Positions 2-10,947 are shown, numbered from the stretch's first letter. The stretch: DNA of 32,000 bases from Erysipelotrichaceae bacterium (GCA_028698185.1 JAQVDW010000010.1:1-32000); one strand, 5' to 3'. The notes: generated from the sequence alone by a model not told the origin. Made by a program: numbers and translations.

Positions 2-350
2 TGGTGGAGGTGGGGGGAATCGAACCCCCGTCCAAAGACTGCTCCTCCAAAGCGTCTACAGCTTAGTCAATTGAGAAGATTTAACCAGGCTAAAACCAAC
101 TGACAAGTGTTCACCAGGCGATCTCTGAGATTTTCGAGATCAATGTTCGAGCGCCATTGATCCTTATCCTGTTGGTTATTGGACCAGTAAGCTTACGACA
201 GGAACGTAAACTCGTGGTGCTTTCAGTCTATATTGACTATGCGAAAGCTAAAGATTGATTTCTGTTTCCAGTTATTTGTTTGTGCACTTAACGTATGCCG
301 ACGGCTGCAACTAAGGTCAAACTAGCCCCTGTCGAATCCAGGACACCCCC
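2..350 (-). ncRNA. ssrA: tmRNA (transfer-messenger RNA)
   Basis: The minus-strand read starts GGGGGTGTCCTGGATTCGACAGGGG (350->326) and ends CGGGGGTTCGATTCCCCCCACCTCCACCA (30->2). These are the canonical tmRNA 5' end and the T-arm/acceptor/CCA 3' end. The acceptor pairing GGGGGTG/CACCTCC contains the G3.U alanine identity pair. An internal frame reads ..KQITGNRNQSLAFA-TAG (287->237). The gene lies directly downstream of smpB. Confidence 0.9.
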
Positions 351-4158: not shown

Positions 4159-5256
4159 ATGCACAAATTAGGTATTTCGGTTTACCCTGACAAGAGTGAT
4201 TTAGATGAAGTATACGCATACGTAAAAAGAGCCAGCGAACTTGGTTATACCCGTATCTTCACCTGCTTTCTTTCAGTAGACAAACAAAGCCGATCTGAAT
4301 ATTTCAAAGTCTTCAAGAAGTTCAGCCAATACTGCCACGAATTAGGTTTCGAACTGGCTGTCGATACCAACCCTGAAATCTTTGCGGAAATCGGCGCGAG
4401 CCCTACCAACCTGCAGCCTTTGATCGACCTAGGTGTCGATATCATCCGTCTCGATGGCGATTTCTCGTTGCAGGACAATATCCTTATTTCCCGCAACCAG
4501 GACAATATCAAAATTGAATTCAATGCGAGCATGAATGCCGGACTGGACAATATGATCGCCTCAGGAGGCAACCGTGATGCAATCCAGGTGTGCCACAACT
4601 TCTATCCCGAACGCTATACCGGCCTGGATTTGCAACTGTATCAGGATCTAAACGACAAATGGAAAGACCTCAACCTGGTTACAGCAGCCTTCGTTTCATC
4701 GAACAATGACAACACCATCGGCCCATGGCAGGTGTTCTGCGGTTTGCCAAGCGTGGAAATCCACCGTGGCTTGCCAATTGACTTACAGGCCCGCCATCTG
4801 ATTTCACTAGGACAGCTTGATGACATCTTGATCGGAAATTATCCGGCTACTGACGAAGAGCTTGTGGCCCTGTCAAAGGTCAATTGGCAATATCTCGAGT
4901 TCAAGGTCGATATCGCAGCAGGTATCAGTGATCTTGAAAGGGAGATCCTGCTTGATTTCTTCCCACATATGGACCGGCCCGATTACTCAAGCTTCATGAT
5001 CCGCTCAAGCTATCCGCGGGTCAAATACAAAGGCCAACCGATTCCTCACCGCCCTATTGAAAAGGAATATTTCGAACCGGGCGACATCGTCATCGTCAAC
5101 GACAACCTGGCCCACTACCGCGGCGAACTTCAGATTGTCCTCGATTACATCAAGAACGACGGCGAGCGCAACCTGGTAGCGACCATCCCGGCTGAGGAAA
5201 TGGCTCTTATCGAAGCCTTCAAACCCGGACATTACTTCTATTTCACCGAAAAATAA
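4159..5256 (+). CDS. DUF871 / MupG-like protein (6-phospho-N-acetylmuramidase family)
   Basis: 365 aa. The N-terminus LGISVYPDKSDLDEVYAYVKRASELGYTRIFTCFLSV and the overall length and organisation match my recollection of the DUF871 (MupG) TIM-barrel family. The RBS is AAAGGAGATCCCAAC-ATG. Confidence 0.7.
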   Translation: MHKLGISVYPDKSDLDEVYAYVKRASELGYTRIFTCFLSVDKQSRSEYFKVFKKFSQYCHELGFELAVDTNPEIFAEIGASPTNLQPLIDLGVDIIRLDGDFSLQDNILISRNQDNIKIEFNASMNAGLDNMIASGGNRDAIQVCHNFYPERYTGLDLQLYQDLNDKWKDLNLVTAAFVSSNNDNTIGPWQVFCGLPSVEIHRGLPIDLQARHLISLGQLDDILIGNYPATDEELVALSKVNWQYLEFKVDIAAGISDLEREILLDFFPHMDRPDYSSFMIRSSYPRVKYKGQPIPHRPIEKEYFEPGDIVIVNDNLAHYRGELQIVLDYIKNDGERNLVATIPAEEMALIEAFKPGHYFYFTEK

Positions 5257-5260
5257 TCGA

Positions 5261-5289
5261 AAAGGAACCTGCAGGTTCCTTTTTTCGTT
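5261..5289. terminator. Bidirectional Rho-independent terminator (left repeat copy)
   Basis: AAAAGGAACC-tgca-GGTTCCTTTTTT: a perfect GC-containing stem flanked by an A run and a T run. It follows the mupG stop on the plus strand and lies downstream of the MazG-like gene on the minus strand. Confidence 0.75.
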
Positions 5290-5291
5290 AT
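5261..5291. repeat. Left copy of the 31-nt direct repeat bracketing the DUF2075/MazG islet
   Basis: aaaaggaacctgcAggttccttttttcgtta at 5261-5291 versus aaaaggaacctgcGggttccttttttcgtta at 7711-7741. That is 30/31 identical, and the single difference is in the hairpin loop. Confidence 0.9.
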
Positions 5292-5400
5292 GCTCAAAAA
5301 CAAAGAATAACAGACAATTAATATATGCTATATAATCGGTTTAACATTATCGTCAATTCAAAAGAAAAATATGTTATCAGATAATCAGTTTCTTCAATTA

Positions 5401-5718
5401 CTAGAGCGCATTGTATTTTTTACTGTTACCTTTTGACTTTTCGATTGGATACTTTTCCTCGTTCTTTTTCAATTTATTTGCGACAATTTGCTCCAGATCA
5501 ACATCCAGTTTGGAGGCAAGTAAAATGCTGTAATTCACTATGTCCGCCAATTCTTCGCATACAGCTTCTTTATCATATTCACTGCTCCACTGAAAGCATT
5601 CAAGCAATTCGCCTGCTTCAATGCAAATGCTTTTTGCCAAATTCTCAGGAGAATGGAATTGGTCCCAATCCCTGTCTTCATTGAACCTCATTATTTTTTT
5701 TGTAACATCTTCTAACAT
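5401..5718 (-). CDS. MazG-like nucleotide pyrophosphohydrolase (small all-alpha NTP-PPase)
   Basis: 105 aa: RFNEDRDWDQFHSPENLAKSICIEAGELLECFQW...EELADIVNYSILLASKLDVDLEQIV..KLKKNEEKYP. The ExxE(xxE) and EExxD metal-binding motifs of the MazG/dCTPase-like superfamily are present. Its start overlaps the stop of the upstream gene. Confidence 0.85.
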   Translation of the reverse strand: MLEDVTKKIMRFNEDRDWDQFHSPENLAKSICIEAGELLECFQWSSEYDKEAVCEELADIVNYSILLASKLDVDLEQIVANKLKKNEEKYPIEKSKGNSKKYNAL

Positions 5719-7586
5719 TCTCCTGTACTCCTGTTCAGTCTCATTTTCAAATATTCCCTAAGATTGTCATCTGTACAATAAATATAACAGCCTTTTTGAC
5801 CTCTTGTGAGCAGTGTTCTATATGTGTTCTTGATAAGCAAATCCGCCAATTTCAAAGTGTCTTCAGGATTTTTCTTAAATTGTGTCTTCAAGCCTCTGAT
5901 TGACCTGTCACTCGATGCCCTCTTGAAAAAGTCCGTCGTGATTTTACCATCTTCATAGCGGAGATCATCACCGATAATCACACCCACATAGTCGAATTCC
6001 AATCCCTGGGAAGTATGGATACAGCCAACTTCATTTACTGAATCTTCATCGATAGCCCAAGTCTTAGTTGATTCAAAGTTCCATGACATCTTGAAATCGC
6101 CAATTATGATATCCGGAGAATCGGATTTGTTCCGGGTACTTTTATTCCAGCCCCAACAATACCCGGCCAGAATACGTGATCTGTTGGCCATTTTATTTTT
6201 GTCCATTATTGCATTTTTCAATTCCACCGGATTATCAAATATTTCAATGTCATAATCGATATTCAATTCGTCATTTGCCGATTTTTCGATTTCCATGACA
6301 TTGTCAAGCCATGAAAGGTAGGCATCGCTGCCGTTACATCTAAACTGCGAGACCAATTTATCCTCGTAAACAATTGCATTGAAGTGCTTGCACCATTTTT
6401 TAATTTCCCCTGTAGAACCAATATCGTTGGTAGTGACAATTTGATTATCGTCAACAAAGAAAATAGCTAGTTTCGATGCATTAATAATTTCTTTAATCTG
6501 GTTTTCTCCCAAATTCTGATACCTCCCCGATTTCGCGTTCAATCGGTGTGCCTCATCGACTATTATGCAATCAAAATCATCTTCATTAGCTTCGATAAAT
6601 GACCCGGATCCCTTGAACAAATTGTCAATATAGACTTTCCGGTACCCTCCTTCTGATAGCTTTTTTCGATACACCTCGCGTGGAGCAATATTTTTCGTAA
6701 CATAAATAGTATTCTTTTCCTGGTTGATCATTTCAACCAACATGTTTATTGCAATAACCGTTTTGCCTGTTCCCGGACCGCCATGAATAATGTATACCTT
6801 TTTGCTCGCATAATTCTCTTTTGCCAATTTCAAAGCTTTTTCATAGGTAACTTTCTGCTCATCGAGCAAAACAAACTCCGGTTTCCCCTTGAGCATATTG
6901 CTAAGACTTTCCTGAAGTGATTTGCTAGGCTTGATTTTTCCGCCCTCTATATGACACATTACGTCGGGATTGCCTTTTTTGATATATTTAGCGATGTAAT
7001 TCCCCAACTTATCAGTGTCGCCTCGCGAAAACACAGGCGCCTGCTTCAGGTAGTATTCATAACACAGATCTAGAAGATCATCGTATTCCTTTTTCTTATA
7101 ATTATGCAAATAAGCACATGGATGCAAATCTATTTTGAACTTCCTTACATCTTCGTTGTAATCTCTAATTAAGCTGGCGTATGACCAAGCCTGATATGAA
7201 GGGTGGGTTACCTCGGCAAGTTTCCCGTTCAATAATGTTTTTACAATTGCATCCTTCCCCTCAACCTTTTCAAGACCCTGCCATTGCTTCAATTCAATTA
7301 TTACTGCATTTTCATTGCCATGTTCATCTTCACCACTGACAATAAAATCGATTCTCTTGTTTGAATTTGGAACTTTGTATTCTATTGCAATGTTGCTATC
7401 GCCTGGTATCGATGTGTTCTCGAGGACCTTGTACATGTACTGCATCGAATTCATCCAGGAATTATATTCACTTTGGCCGGTTTTTCTATTCAACCTTTCA
7501 AGCACCAATCTTTGAATTTTCTCATCAATTACGTCGTGGTAGACATCATCCAAAAACTGCGCTTTTGTCTCTTGATACACTATCAT
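5712..7586 (-). CDS. DUF2075-family (Schlafen group-3 helicase-like) P-loop ATPase with N-terminal PD-(D/E)xK-like nuclease motif
   Basis: 624 aa. Motifs are RID80FIV...VIIE98LK100QW (restriction-endonuclease-like), Walker A HGGPGTGKT (aa 268-276) and Walker B CIIVDEAH (aa 340-347). FFVDDNQIV, QFRCNGS, IHTSQGLEFDYVGVIIG and YRTLLTRGQKG are also present. The RBS is GAGGTATAACT-ATG. Confidence 0.85.
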   Translation of the reverse strand: MIVYQETKAQFLDDVYHDVIDEKIQRLVLERLNRKTGQSEYNSWMNSMQYMYKVLENTSIPGDSNIAIEYKVPNSNKRIDFIVSGEDEHGNENAVIIELKQWQGLEKVEGKDAIVKTLLNGKLAEVTHPSYQAWSYASLIRDYNEDVRKFKIDLHPCAYLHNYKKKEYDDLLDLCYEYYLKQAPVFSRGDTDKLGNYIAKYIKKGNPDVMCHIEGGKIKPSKSLQESLSNMLKGKPEFVLLDEQKVTYEKALKLAKENYASKKVYIIHGGPGTGKTVIAINMLVEMINQEKNTIYVTKNIAPREVYRKKLSEGGYRKVYIDNLFKGSGSFIEANEDDFDCIIVDEAHRLNAKSGRYQNLGENQIKEIINASKLAIFFVDDNQIVTTNDIGSTGEIKKWCKHFNAIVYEDKLVSQFRCNGSDAYLSWLDNVMEIEKSANDELNIDYDIEIFDNPVELKNAIMDKNKMANRSRILAGYCWGWNKSTRNKSDSPDIIIGDFKMSWNFESTKTWAIDEDSVNEVGCIHTSQGLEFDYVGVIIGDDLRYEDGKITTDFFKRASSDRSIRGLKTQFKKNPEDTLKLADLLIKNTYRTLLTRGQKGCYIYCTDDNLREYLKMRLNRSTGEC

Positions 7587-7617
7587 AGTTATACCTCATT
7601 AGTGCCTTTCTTTTCAC

Positions 7618-7646
7618 AGTATAACACAGGCCAGGTTTGTAAACAA
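7618..7646 (-). promoter_or_regulatory. Candidate promoter of the DUF2075/MazG cassette
   Basis: The minus strand reads TTGTTT - 17 nt - TATACT with TGT upstream of the -10 (extended -10). It lies about 30 nt upstream of the DUF2075 start, inside the islet and downstream of the right terminator copy. Confidence 0.45.
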
Positions 7647-7710
7647 TAATTTGATTTTAGTTTACTTTATCACCTGTCACATATAGGAAAACCAGTATTT
7701 TCAAAATCAA

Positions 7711-7739
7711 AAAAGGAACCTGCGGGTTCCTTTTTTCGT
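7711..7739 (-). terminator. Rho-independent terminator after the HAD gene (right repeat copy)
   Basis: AAAAGGAACC-tgcg-GGTTCCTTTTTT. On the minus strand the hairpin starts right after the HAD stop codon (7739-7741) and is followed by TTTTTTGATTTT. Confidence 0.7.
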
Positions 7740-7741
7740 TA
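7711..7741. repeat. Right copy of the 31-nt direct repeat bracketing the DUF2075/MazG islet
   Basis: See the left copy. The right end of this repeat (..cgtta) includes the TAA stop (minus strand) of the HAD gene. Confidence 0.9.
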
Positions 7742-8521
7742 GAAGAATTTATTGAGGGCCTTGAGCAGGCCGTCATCCATGAAATCGTCGGTGACATAGT
7801 CGGCGATCTGTTTGAGTTCGTCGACTCCGTTGCCCATGACCACACCACAGCCAACTGCCTTGATCATTTCGATATCGTTGTAGCCATCACCAAAAGCGTA
7901 ACTGTCGCTTATTTTCAGGTTGTAGTAAGCCAGGGTCTTCTCAATCCCCTGGGCCTTGGTGATGTCCTTCGAGTAGATCTCAAAAGCATTGATGGTCCCG
8001 TTGTAATCGTAGTTGAACTTGCCGTCGATCATCTCGATGAATTCATCGGCCAGATGGGCCGGCAGGCTTATTTCCATCTTGATGATCTTGTGGTAGACCG
8101 CCTTGTCGAACTCGCTGATGATATGGTCTTCCTTGATGTTGCATCTTTGGTAGAATTCCCAGAGGTTCGTGAACTGAGCCTTCAAGTAGCCATACTTGTT
8201 GTCCTGGAGGATGTATTCCACCTGATGGCTGTCAAGATAGCTGACCACTTCCTCGACGTTTTCTTGACCGAGGTAGTTCTCAAAGATCGATTTGCCCTCG
8301 ACCATCACATGGGAACCGTTCGCCATTACGAAACCGTCGAAGTCGAGCGATGTCAGGTATTCATTGACAAAGGCGTATGGCCTTCCAGTGGCGATGAACA
8401 GGTGGTTGCCTTTCTCCTTGATCTCATTCAACTTTTCAATAACCGCAGGCGGGATCTTGTCGACGCCCTTGTCGTTTTGGACCAGGGTCCCATCAACATC
8501 GAAAAACAATACTTTACTCAT
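7739..8521 (-). CDS. Cof-type HAD-IIB family phosphatase
   Basis: MSKVLFFDVDGTLV (motif I), IATGRP (motif II) and FGDGYNDIEM (motif IV). The ATG at 8521 has the RBS AAAGGAGAAAATTG. It overlaps the stop of the upstream gene (ATGAGTAA). Confidence 0.85.
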   Translation of the reverse strand: MSKVLFFDVDGTLVQNDKGVDKIPPAVIEKLNEIKEKGNHLFIATGRPYAFVNEYLTSLDFDGFVMANGSHVMVEGKSIFENYLGQENVEEVVSYLDSHQVEYILQDNKYGYLKAQFTNLWEFYQRCNIKEDHIISEFDKAVYHKIIKMEISLPAHLADEFIEMIDGKFNYDYNGTINAFEIYSKDITKAQGIEKTLAYYNLKISDSYAFGDGYNDIEMIKAVGCGVVMGNGVDELKQIADYVTDDFMDDGLLKALNKFF

Positions 8522-9809
8522 CAATTTTCTCCTTTATGATTGCTTTGATAACGCGGTGGTGTTTGACTTCCACCACTTTGATATGGTATTTCCCGATTGA
8601 AAATTCGGGTTGGGTGTTGTCTGCTGGAATCTGTTCGAGATGGTGGAAAATGAATCCACCCATCGTTTCGTAGCTTTCGCTCGCGAAGTTCGTTCCTAAC
8701 ACATCGTCCACGTTCTGGGCCGGGGTCGTACCGTAGACAAGCCATTGCCCTTCCTGGATTTCCTTGATCTGGTTGAAAAGCGATTCCTCGACAAATTCAC
8801 CCACTATTTCCTCAAGCAGGTCCGAGAGGGTGACGATTCCGCTGACCCCGCCGTACTCGTCGAGCACGACAGCCATCTGCTCCTGCTTGATTTTCATCGA
8901 GGCGAACAGGTAGTCGGCTCTCATGTTTTCATAAACGAAGTAGGGCCTTTTGGCTTTTTCAGCCAGGATCCGCTTCTTGTCAAGGGTGCGGTAAACATCT
9001 TTGGCATTGACCACGCCGATGATCGAATCCATCGAACCGTCGACAATCGGATAGAGATTGTGCTCATTGGTATCGATGGTTTCCTTCCATTTGGAAAAAT
9101 CATCGTTGACATCGAGATAGACAACATCGAAGCGATGGGTCAGGATTTCCGATGCGAACTTATCGTCGAACTTGAAGAGGTTGGAGATGATTTCCGCCTC
9201 TTCCACGTCGATTATCCCCTTTGATGAACTTGCATCGACCATCATCAGGATTTCCTCCTCGCCAACATCGGTTGATATGGCGTCGGGATCGATCCTGAAA
9301 AGCCGCAGGGCCAGATTGGTCGAAAGGGTCAATAAGGAGACAAGCGGAGCAAAAATCTTGGCTACGACATTGATGACATTTCCCGCAAAAAGGGCTATCT
9401 CCTGGGCATATTGCTGTCCGATGCGCTTTGGCACCAGTTCGCCTAACACCAGGGTGATGTAGGAAAGTACGATGGTGATCACGATAACCGCGATGTTTTC
9501 TAGCAGTCCTAGATTGTCAGTCACATTAAGCTTGACAAGCAGGTCGACCAACCCCTGGGAAAATGACTGGGCCGCGAAGGCCGAGCCCATGAAGCCCGAC
9601 AGGGTGATCGCCACCTGGATGGTTGCCAGGAACTTGGCGGGATCTTGCAACAGACGGGTGAGCTTGATTGCCTTGATGTTGCCGTCCTTGGCAAGCCGCT
9701 CGAGTTTCGTGTCATTGAACGAAATGACCGCGATCTCGCTCATCGCAAAAAACGCATTAAGTAAAATCAGTGCTAGTTGCAGCAACAGCTGCGAAGTAAT
9801 AGTATTCAT
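8514..9809 (-). CDS. Hemolysin-family / CNNM (DUF21-CBS-CorC_HlyC) membrane protein
   Basis: 431 aa. The N-terminal four-TM DUF21 region contains FFAMSEIAVIS. A CBS pair follows (EILTHRFDVVYLDVN...; YPIVDGSMDSIIGVVNAKD). The C-terminal CorC/HlyC-like region contains GGFIFHHLEQIP. Confidence 0.85.
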   Translation of the reverse strand: MNTITSQLLLQLALILLNAFFAMSEIAVISFNDTKLERLAKDGNIKAIKLTRLLQDPAKFLATIQVAITLSGFMGSAFAAQSFSQGLVDLLVKLNVTDNLGLLENIAVIVITIVLSYITLVLGELVPKRIGQQYAQEIALFAGNVINVVAKIFAPLVSLLTLSTNLALRLFRIDPDAISTDVGEEEILMMVDASSSKGIIDVEEAEIISNLFKFDDKFASEILTHRFDVVYLDVNDDFSKWKETIDTNEHNLYPIVDGSMDSIIGVVNAKDVYRTLDKKRILAEKAKRPYFVYENMRADYLFASMKIKQEQMAVVLDEYGGVSGIVTLSDLLEEIVGEFVEESLFNQIKEIQEGQWLVYGTTPAQNVDDVLGTNFASESYETMGGFIFHHLEQIPADNTQPEFSIGKYHIKVVEVKHHRVIKAIIKEKIDE

Positions 9810-9863
9810 AAGTAACTCATTATCTTTTCAATAATGAACCTTCCTTTCATTTTAATTTGACTA

Positions 9864-9892
9864 ATTATACCATTTTTCCAGTCGAAAATAAA
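9864..9892 (-). promoter_or_regulatory. Candidate extended -10 promoter for the CNNM/HAD operon
   Basis: The minus strand reads TTTATT - 17 nt - TGgTATAAT. The -10 is good with a TG extension, but the -35 is weak. Confidence 0.35.
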
Positions 9893-9920
9893 TCAAACTG
9901 GCCGGCTTTCCCATAATGAA

Positions 9921-9945
9921 AAACAAAAAGGAGCCCGCAGGCCCC
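9921..9945 (-). terminator. Rho-independent terminator after mreB
   Basis: The minus-strand RNA is GGGGCC-UGCG-GGCUCC (one G.U pair) followed by UUUUUGUUU. It starts about 12 nt after the mreB stop. Confidence 0.55.
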
Positions 9946-9957
9946 AGTTCATTGAAT

Positions 9958-10947
9958 TTATTTTACGTAATGGAGGTGCTCCAACATTACGCCACAACCG
10001 TTGGCAACACAGTTGAGTGCGTCTTCAGCGACAAACACCGGAACGTTCAATTCGTCTTCCAATAATTTGTCCATTCCCATAAGCAATGCCCCCCCACCGG
10101 TCAGGAAGATTCCGCGTTCCACGATATCCGCCGCCAATTCAGGAGGTGTCTGTTCGAGGACGATACGGGTTTCCCGCAGGATCCGTTGGCAAGTTTCACG
10201 CAATGAAAGCTCGATTTCATCGGCAGTCAAAGTGATTGTATGAGGCAACCCGGTAACCAGGTCACGCCCGCGCACTTCCATAGTCTTGTCAGACATACCT
10301 TTGATGGCACAACCGATCTGGACCTTGATCTGTTCAGCTGTGCGATCACCGATCAACAACTTGTATTTTTCCTTGACAAACTTGATGATTTCCTCATCCA
10401 TGCGGTCACCCGCAATCTTGAGTGATGAGCTGGTCACTATTTCCCCCAATGACAATACCGCGATATCGCAAGTTCCCCCACCGATATCGATTACCATGTT
10501 CCCTGTCGGTCTTGAGATATCCAGGCCGGCTCCAATAGCTGCAACCTTAGGTTCCTCTTCGATGAAAACTTTTCTAGCTCCACAACGTTGCGCCGCATCC
10601 TTGATCGCCGATTTTTCAATCGAAGTGATGTTTGAAGGGCAGCAGATCAGAATTGTCGGTCTTGTGAAGATCCCCTTTAGGTTTAGTTTGTTGATGAAAT
10701 GAGTCAACAGGATCTCAGTGATCTGGAAATCCGCGATGACACCGTCTTTCAAGGGACGGATGGCTTTGACACGACCAGGTGTCTTCCCCAACATGTCTTT
10801 TGCTTCCTGACCAACCGCCAAAGCGCGTTTGGTTTCCTCATCTATCGCCACAACCGAAGGTTCGTTGACAACAATCCCTTCACCTTTGACATAGATTAAT
10901 ATATTTGCAGTACCTAAATCGATACCAATTTCCTTTGAGAATGGCAC
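9958..10947 (-). CDS. mreB: Rod-shape-determining actin homologue MreB
   Basis: EIGIDLGTANILIYV, DIGGGTCDIAVLS and GIFLTGGGALL are actin/MreB phosphate and adenosine motifs. I prefer the GTG at 10947 because it has AAGGAGGAATTACGA upstream. The ATG at 10980 has no SD and lies within the predicted -10 box. Confidence 0.9.
   Translation of the reverse strand: MPFSKEIGIDLGTANILIYVKGEGIVVNEPSVVAIDEETKRALAVGQEAKDMLGKTPGRVKAIRPLKDGVIADFQITEILLTHFINKLNLKGIFTRPTILICCPSNITSIEKSAIKDAAQRCGARKVFIEEEPKVAAIGAGLDISRPTGNMVIDIGGGTCDIAVLSLGEIVTSSSLKIAGDRMDEEIIKFVKEKYKLLIGDRTAEQIKVQIGCAIKGMSDKTMEVRGRDLVTGLPHTITLTADEIELSLRETCQRILRETRIVLEQTPPELAADIVERGIFLTGGGALLMGMDKLLEDELNVPVFVAEDALNCVANGCGVMLEHLHYVK

Follow-up and report, generated by a model that had tools for sequence, protein, structure and literature searches.

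We analysed a 32,000-nt stretch of DNA (JAQVDW010000010.1, positions 1-32000; hereafter the window) from an uncultured Coprobacillaceae bacterium, in which a two-gene cassette is bracketed by a 31-nt direct repeat and lies between two convergent housekeeping genes. The left flanking gene, mupG (4159-5256, plus strand; Pfam MupG_N 6.6e-76, MupG_C 2.2e-30), encodes a 6-phospho-N-acetylmuramidase, has its stop codon at 5254-5256 and is syntenic in all relatives. The right flanking gene (7739-8521, minus strand; Pfam Hydrolase_3 9.9e-55, NCBIfam Cof-subfamily 3e-48) encodes a Cof-type HAD-IIB hydrolase and is termed HAD below. Both cassette genes are on the minus strand, one encoding a 624-aa Nhi-like protein (5712-7586) and the other a 105-aa MazG-like all-alpha NTP pyrophosphohydrolase (5401-5718). 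The intervening DNA of 2,420 nt is the only low-GC block of the window (0.374 versus 0.48-0.49 in the flanks).

A pattern search located the repeat as AAAAGGAACCTGCAGGTTCCTTTTTTCGTTA at 5260-5290 and AAAAGGAACCTGCGGGTTCCTTTTTTCGTTA at 7711-7741, with 30 of the 31 positions identical. The first-pass annotation of this DNA had reported the same length and identity and had placed the right copy exactly; its left copy, given as 5261-5291, was off by one nucleotide. These are the only two copies of the 31-mer in the window, where shuffled sequence yields 0.00 matches by chance (100 shuffles). The window holds no second direct repeat of at least 22 nt and more than 90% identity, and the pattern GGAACC-N(2-9)-GGTTCC does not occur in it outside the two repeat copies. 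Both copies, with the one difference between them, are present in contigs of about 10 independent samples, and this recurrence of the arrangement excludes an assembly artefact.

Each copy consists essentially of a 10-bp stem closed by a 4-nt loop. The sole mismatch (5273 A versus 7724 G) falls, as the earlier annotation had it, within the loop, of which it is the fourth and last base (TGCA in the left copy, TGCG in the right one), and the stem is intact in both copies. The stem and loop are preceded by AAAA and followed by TTTTTT, the fold energy of both copies on either strand is -14 to -17 kcal/mol (z-scores -3.3 to -4.3), and the position corresponds to the ends of convergent genes. From this shape and position we infer that both are bidirectional intrinsic (rho-independent) terminators; a consensus terminator scan flagged one of the four copy and strand combinations, namely the left copy on the minus strand. 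The left copy, which starts 3 nt past the mupG stop codon, is predicted to terminate mupG on the plus strand and the cassette operon on the minus strand. The right copy is the predicted terminator of HAD and would also shield the cassette from HAD read-through. Its final 3 nt are the HAD stop codon (complement of 7739-7741), whose presence in this copy the first reading had picked out. It follows that the left copy, in which the stem is succeeded by TTCG and TTA, holds a displaced HAD stop codon.

The mupG-HAD site in related lineages

The mupG-HAD locus of relatives, each designated here by an L number, was retrieved via members of the MupG cluster, which gave five related lineages as well as the distant L017 and L020. 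In the nearest relative found, L023 (about 92-93% nucleotide identity in core genes; 92.7% for mupG and 91.3% for HAD), the site is empty: the mupG stop codon, a single hairpin and the HAD stop codon lie all inside 33 nt. L017 and L020, whose MupG proteins are 55-60% identical, likewise have mupG and HAD in convergent orientation with one bidirectional hairpin between them, and the mupG-HAD spacer of these three single-hairpin relatives measures 33-75 nt. The presence of one hairpin in L023 as well as in the distant L017 and L020 indicates that the empty state is ancestral. An empty site, which had been proposed as a check of the first-pass annotation, does therefore exist, and the idea of one terminator formerly serving both genes is supported by the same three relatives. 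As read from these sequences, the ancestral locus is mupG and HAD converging on one shared hairpin, predicted to be a bidirectional terminator.

Different cargo is found between the same flanking genes in other lineages: the window, L010, L026, L028 and L011 are occupied, and L023 is empty. L010 (about 87% nucleotide identity) carries an AT-rich open reading frame of 343 aa (9234-10265; GC 0.31), whose family is unassigned, between two hairpins that are identical to each other and represent the lineage's own version. In L026 (about 81% nucleotide identity) a pyruvate-kinase-like gene (7204-8712) lies between two diverged hairpins of the same family, and L028 (about 80% nucleotide identity) holds, again between two diverged hairpins, an allele of the window's DUF2075 and MazG cassette (5001-7185) that is 81% identical to it. 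Alternative cargo between the same repeats, also suggested as a check, is thus present in these three lineages. A glyoxalase-family gene occupies the site in L011 (about 78% nucleotide identity), where the terminators are unrelated. We conclude that the hairpin is a recurrent insertion hotspot, which in L010, L026, L028 and the window has received unrelated cargo and each time displays two copies of the resident hairpin. The window cassette is a foreign, AT-rich and self-promoted insertion into a mupG-HAD spacer of about 35 nt.

All four hairpin-bracketed cargos (5401-7586 in the window, 9234-10265 in L010, 7204-8712 in L026 and 5001-7185 in L028) are on the strand of HAD, which is the leading strand by the GC skew of the window (negative on the plus strand). 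Further unsequenced DNA lies in L028 between the left hairpin of the cassette and mupG. At the edges of this gap, in two contigs from one sample (L027 5256-5297 and L028 7241-7291), mupG is followed by DNA without the hairpin, and what lies outside the left hairpin is sequence other than mupG; the gap-edge sequence has no match among the other loci. The sequence between L027 and L028 could hold a second cassette or a mobility gene. In L021 the mupG gene itself (6001-7848) encodes a MupG of 615 aa with two MupG_N/MupG_C sets and contains a perfect 699-nt tandem repeat, which is either a tandem duplication or an assembly artefact. A scan of JGI metagenomes returned only relatives with 55-61% MupG identity.

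Origin of the duplicated segment

Alignment of the junctions revealed that one boundary is fixed and the other variable. The HAD-side copy starts, in the window, L010 and L026 alike, from the hairpin base that faces mupG. The end of the mupG-side copy varies: it is situated 7 nt past the stem in the window, possibly about as far past it in L026, and in L010 about 100 nt inside the HAD coding sequence. The duplicated unit consequently measures 31 nt in the window against about 131 nt in L010, and it always includes the end of HAD. The proposal of the first-pass annotation that the cassette was inserted at the hairpin with duplication of the site is supported by these data, in the refined form of a unit of variable length that includes the HAD end and that in L010 is a copy of the resident sequence.

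This last point is established by the HAD fragment on the mupG side in L010. The fragment and the HAD gene of L010 have in common two derived synonymous substitutions that are lacking in five other lineages, and the fragment has in addition undergone three later second-codon-position (replacement) changes, as expected of a dead fragment. A copy bearing the derived substitutions of its own lineage must have been copied from the recipient chromosome and not imported, and the two shared derived sites led us to reject a foreign, element-borne origin of the L010 fragment. Within the L010 duplication, the two copies are nearly identical over the hairpin and the first 29 nt of HAD-end sequence (9103-9159 versus 10473-10528), whereas the adjoining 69 nt differ at 14 sites (9160-9229 versus 10529-10598). 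The near identity of this unit of about 57 nt suggests either gene conversion or functional constraint.

In the window lineage, divergence from L023 at four-fold degenerate sites is uniform (0.24-0.30) in the RNR, mupG, HAD and CNNM genes, and by eye the last 100 nt of mupG and of HAD do not diverge above average. Over 33 aligned columns, 7 substitutions and one indel separate the hairpin of the window from that of L023. With flank divergence uniform up to the hairpin and the hairpin itself approximately neutral, the boundaries of the event are to be sought inside the spacer of about 35 nt, and no imported flank tract is visible. We therefore rejected homologous import via the flanks, and likewise the arrival of the window hairpins together with the cassette, as a difference from L023 at about 27% of columns equals the four-fold-site divergence and is that of neutral drift. 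Typing and phylogeny of the hairpins themselves gave a signal too noisy at 25-35 nt.

The cargo and the search for mobility genes

The MazG-like protein (Pfam MazG-like 1.5e-20; PHROG pyrophosphatase) is nearest to dCTP pyrophosphatase 1 (DCTPP1)/RS21-C6, with matches to PDB entries 2a3q and 6sqw at E 2.8e-20. Its gene and that of the Nhi-like protein overlap by 7 nt and so form an operon. The larger protein matches Pfam SLFN-g3_helicase (DUF2075/Schlafen group 3 SF1 helicase, 3.2e-104), and its N-terminal region contains a D80...E98-x-K100 motif of the PD-(D/E)xK type that is invariant in an alignment of 25 homologues. Nhi-like anti-phage proteins combine an N-terminal predicted nuclease with DUF2075 (bioRxiv 10.1101/2022.05.11.491447; 10.1101/776245), and the 624-aa cargo protein, in which a predicted nuclease precedes a DUF2075 SF1 helicase, appears to have the same architecture. 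It differs from the Nhi systems in giving weak and partial matches with PADLOC (to AbiO, Nhi and PDC-S41, those to AbiO and Nhi at E ~1e-16 and in the helicase region) and in its constant overlapping MazG-like partner. In the loci examined the Nhi-like protein is always paired with such a gene, and no description of a DUF2075 and MazG pairing was found in a literature search. The same overlapping pair occurs in other Erysipelotrichales at 75-78% identity (L029 5001-7185; L037 4758-6945), with neighbours typical of defence islands, either reverse transcriptase and HD-CE genes or NUDIX and PLD-helicase-DUF3427 genes. The two-gene cassette is thus probably an anti-phage module, a candidate assignment made on domain content and context. 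At its other genomic locations no direct repeats flank it, which indicates that the repeat is part of the target rather than of the cassette.

The 5' region of the cassette (7587-7710, minus strand) contains, on direct reading, a GAGG ribosome-binding site (7597-7594) and a candidate promoter on the minus strand, composed of TTGTTT (7646-7641), a 17-nt spacer and an extended -10 element TGtTATACT (7626-7618); a consensus scan with stricter rules did not return this promoter, which remains a reading by eye. Downstream of the MazG-like gene, the cassette ends in an AT-rich spacer of 110 nt (5291-5400, minus strand), its 3' untranslated part, which is included in the low-GC block. No strong hairpin of its own was seen by eye in this spacer, and the left repeat copy is the only hairpin downstream. 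Within the species of the window, BLAST recovered the cassette at 99.4-100% identity across about 10 samples, where it varies along with its flanks; it is fixed and co-diverging. Between the window and L024 and L025, polymorphisms in the cassette exceed those in the flanks (14 in 2,420 nt versus 10 in 4,404 nt and 0 in 3,239 nt).

No integrase, transposase, reverse transcriptase or terminal inverted repeats could be detected in any occupied site, and the only Pfam domains of the window cassette are the DUF2075-type helicase/NTPase and MazG; that no integrase or transposase is visible there had been observed at the outset. The non-coding margins of the occupied sites measure only 0-230 nt, and none of the four hairpin-bracketed sites contains a recombinase gene or pseudogene. 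Tyrosine recombinases were absent from the annotated parts of the window and of the related loci, and no integrase-bearing occupant was seen in the five related lineages sampled, with the L027/L028 gap unread. An Rfam scan of the window returned the tmRNA gene only and no intron family at threshold, consistent with the earlier remark that the hallmarks of group II introns are missing. The cassette ends are unrelated to each other, and alignment of the junctions identified no conserved inner-flank motif common to the different cargos.

The first-pass annotation had also considered that the 31-mer might be a common dispersed element. In 274 kb of non-redundant related sequence, hairpin-containing direct repeats were found only at the mupG-HAD locus, and the 31-mer is absent from viral-contig, phage and plasmid collections, generic terminator look-alikes aside; dispersed copies were thus encountered neither there nor in the window. 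The cassette and its junction were not found in the plasmid and phage collections. Searches of the viral contigs with the 31-mer, HAD and the helicase gave nothing useful, and no attP-like relative was present in the viral, phage and plasmid sets.

A second, classical variable site is located about 5 kb from the cassette, beyond the tmRNA gene (2-350, minus strand) that adjoins smpB. The DNA on the tmRNA side, upstream of smpB, varies among strains and species: L002 and L024 have a prophage-like combination of a large serine recombinase and an S24 repressor there, L001 a methyltransferase and DUF6618, L023 an IS1595 transposase and L026 VanZ.

Possible routes of insertion and relation to known systems

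We tentatively favour, with a probability of roughly 40-45%, the view that these insertions are recombinase-independent, illegitimate events at the palindrome that duplicate their target. A replication intermediate would stall or break at the hairpin, and the stalled or broken end would switch template to foreign DNA, or the ends would be filled in around captured foreign DNA. Rejoining a short and variable distance behind would then cause the hairpin and the HAD end to be copied twice, which would leave one fixed and one variable junction, a duplication of variable length and a duplicate of resident origin. Selection might keep the duplicates, since mupG, the cassette and HAD would form three transcription units each needing a terminator, and the direct repeats could later permit gene conversion, as in the hairpin-proximal 57 nt of L010, and precise loss of the cargo. 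Several observations weigh against this mechanism. Junction microhomology amounts at best to 4 nt (AATC) in an A-rich context, and template switching or break repair is a process that we infer. The same cassette family is found at the same site in two lineages with only about 80% core nucleotide identity, and the window and L028 alleles are no closer to each other than either is to a Thomasclavelia allele; together these facts hint at a site preference, which would not be predicted from an illegitimate mechanism. Another point is the tidiness of the cassettes, which are composed of complete genes with a promoter and devoid of gene fragments, and the identity of the hairpin and adjoining 29 nt in L010 could stem not from gene conversion but from functional constraint on a site of recombination. 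Finally, the clade sample comprises five lineages, one of them, L027/L028, with an unsequenced gap beside the cassette.

The tidiness of the cassettes and the reuse of the site fit site-specific integration, a reading that we consider somewhat doubtful. The hairpin, seen as a 6-nt CTGCAG centre with an inverted arm of 9 nt on either side, would be the att core on which a tyrosine-type recombinase acts, its gene lying elsewhere or having since been lost. The 31-nt repeats would correspond to attL and attR, and the cassettes to minimal elements that are mobilised in trans in the manner of integron cassettes or of cis-mobilizable elements (CIMEs), with an element-borne copy restoring the HAD 3' end and its terminator. 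The repeats do extend over a gene's 3' end, a typical property of att sites, the lone mismatch falls in the central spacer, the hairpin-proximal 57 nt have been kept in both L010 copies, and the site has served for unrelated cargo and on two occasions for one cassette family; the unsequenced DNA beside the L028 cassette could moreover hide a recombinase. However, no recombinase gene or remnant is present in the four occupied sites with their short margins, the cargos have no common inner-flank motif, no attP-like sequence emerged from the viral, phage and plasmid collections, the repeats vary in length, and the source of both copies in L010 is the lineage's own HAD, so that neither is element-borne and foreign. 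The only recombinase nearby is the large serine recombinase beside the tmRNA gene in some strains, and large serine recombinases are not known to leave long direct repeats. Excision, whether by a site-specific mechanism or by recombination between the repeats, would give a circular cassette with the junction ...TTTTCAAAATCAA - 31-mer - TGCTCAAAAAC... and an empty site reading TAATCG + 31-mer + GAAGAATTT. A more specific proposal, which we hold to be distinctly unlikely, is that the hairpin is the attachment site of an undescribed cassette-exchange system of Erysipelotrichales, in which a recombinase or structure-specific enzyme encoded elsewhere places compact cassettes with their own promoters into terminator palindromes, duplicating the site in the process; such a system would resemble integron or CRISPR-repeat duplication, but with ordinary terminators as landing pads. 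Variable repeat length and duplication of the lineage's own sequence would in turn fit Campbell-type (ends-in) homologous recombination, in which circular or linear DNA whose cargo is already linked to a local segment with the terminator and HAD end, for instance a circle that recombination between the repeats has released from a conspecific, recombines and duplicates that segment. Excision through the direct repeats could also have generated the empty site of the sister lineage L023, and homologous recombination has been proposed to aid insertion at the many hypervariable hotspots that lack mobilisation genes (PMC3556495). Yet this route would explain the spread of a cassette and not the first linkage of cargo to the terminator segment, and no polymorphism between empty and occupied sites exists within the window's species in about 10 samples. 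A homology of 31 nt is also marginal for RecA-dependent recombination. We regard a Campbell-type origin as unlikely.

The clear divergence of the hairpins within each pair in L026 and L028 might instead mean that insertion caused no duplication at all, the two hairpins being separate similar terminators or the product of an earlier tandem duplication, later homogenised by gene conversion, which is plausible in L010. This appears quite improbable, as the sister and distant relatives have a single hairpin in a spacer of 33-75 nt, and the left copy includes the HAD stop codon in the window and about 100 nt of HAD coding sequence in L010; containing the HAD end, these copies derive from it and not from an independent mupG terminator. 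That the hairpin belongs to a dispersed repeat, of the REP (repetitive extragenic palindromic) or MITE (miniature inverted-repeat transposable element) kind, which merely flanks the cassette, is to our mind highly improbable. GGAAC...GTTCC hairpins with A and T tracts do occur at L011 15612-15629 and L014 510-525, and loosely similar hairpins exist in unrelated phages, but these matches are only 80-85% identical and have a generic terminator shape, the window and the 274 kb of related loci hold no further copy, and each lineage duplicates its own orthologous hairpin. The L011 hairpin, GGAACC...GGTTCC, is at an unrelated locus, and within the clade this stem is a terminator motif of generic type and low copy number. 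The L014 hairpin, which is terminator-like, lies in a stretch flanked by a 134-nt direct repeat (50-183 and 780-913, spacing 730 nt) in AT-rich non-coding DNA of Coprobacillaceae bacterium CR2/5/TPMF4.

Of the systems known to leave comparable structures, transposases duplicate their target site, and CRISPR spacer integration likewise leaves the insert flanked by direct repeats of the target. Duplication of the target on both sides, here of a palindromic unit of about 30 nt, is common to these reactions and to the mupG-HAD locus, which differs from them in having no terminal inverted repeats, transposase or cas genes and no fixed length of duplication. To our knowledge, no transposase generates a duplication near the ~131 nt of L010. 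A transposon or insertion sequence (IS) with target-site duplication was accordingly dismissed, there being no transposase domain, unrelated cassette ends and repeats of 31 versus ~131 nt. The same fate befell elements of the IS200/IS605 type (no transposase domain in the cassette, and a target duplication is present), IS91 and Xer/dif modules (no transposase and no dif-like sequence seen) and group II introns (the tmRNA gene as sole Rfam match, no reverse transcriptase in the cassette, and again a target duplication). Compact cassettes bounded by hairpin sites, with a recombinase that would act in trans, recall integron cassettes. The attC sites of integrons are longer imperfect palindromes with extrahelical bases; here, in contrast, a short perfect palindrome with an unpaired 4-nt loop has the features of a terminator, the cassette is single and has its own candidate promoter, and no IntI was seen. 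An integron cassette was ruled out on the lack of an array, of IntI and of any attC-like structure.

Minimal mobile elements (MMEs) of Neisseria are another example of hotspots at which variable cassettes lie between conserved genes. The hypervariable hotspots of Listeria (PMC3556495) similarly harbour varied whole-gene cargo, including defence genes, between conserved genes and without mobility genes. Exchange at hotspots and MMEs is ascribed to homologous recombination in the flanking genes, whereas here no imported tract is visible and an intergenic terminator is duplicated; cassette exchange of this type was ruled out by the uniform four-fold-site divergence between the window and L023. 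CIMEs keep attL and attR and have lost their integration genes (PMC5704250). The locus resembles them formally, the window cassette being likewise placed between direct repeats at the 3' end of a gene, without integration or transfer genes and at a site that is reused. Unlike in CIMEs, the margins contain no remnants of ICEs (integrative and conjugative elements) or IMEs (integrative and mobilizable elements), no cognate integrase-bearing element was found in the five lineages sampled, the repeats of 31 to ~131 nt are resident-derived in both copies, and the cassettes have only 1.2-2.4 kb with minimal margins. The distinctive feature of the locus is that insertions have recurred at a terminator palindrome and that the accompanying target duplications vary in length and were copied from resident DNA, a combination that a shallow literature search on terminator duplication did not find described.

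The arrival of defence islets in hotspots without mobility genes is usually left unexplained or credited to recombination in flanking genes. The mupG-HAD locus offers a clean natural series in this respect, made up of an empty site, four insertions, duplications of differing length and one fixed edge at the terminator. It also flags the conserved pair of a Nhi-like protein and a DCTPP1-like MazG protein as a candidate two-gene defence module. If it is true that terminator palindromes are general landing pads, insertion would supply both the newcomer and its two neighbours with terminators, and the low-cost entry of small foreign operons into convergent intergenic regions would thereby be explained.

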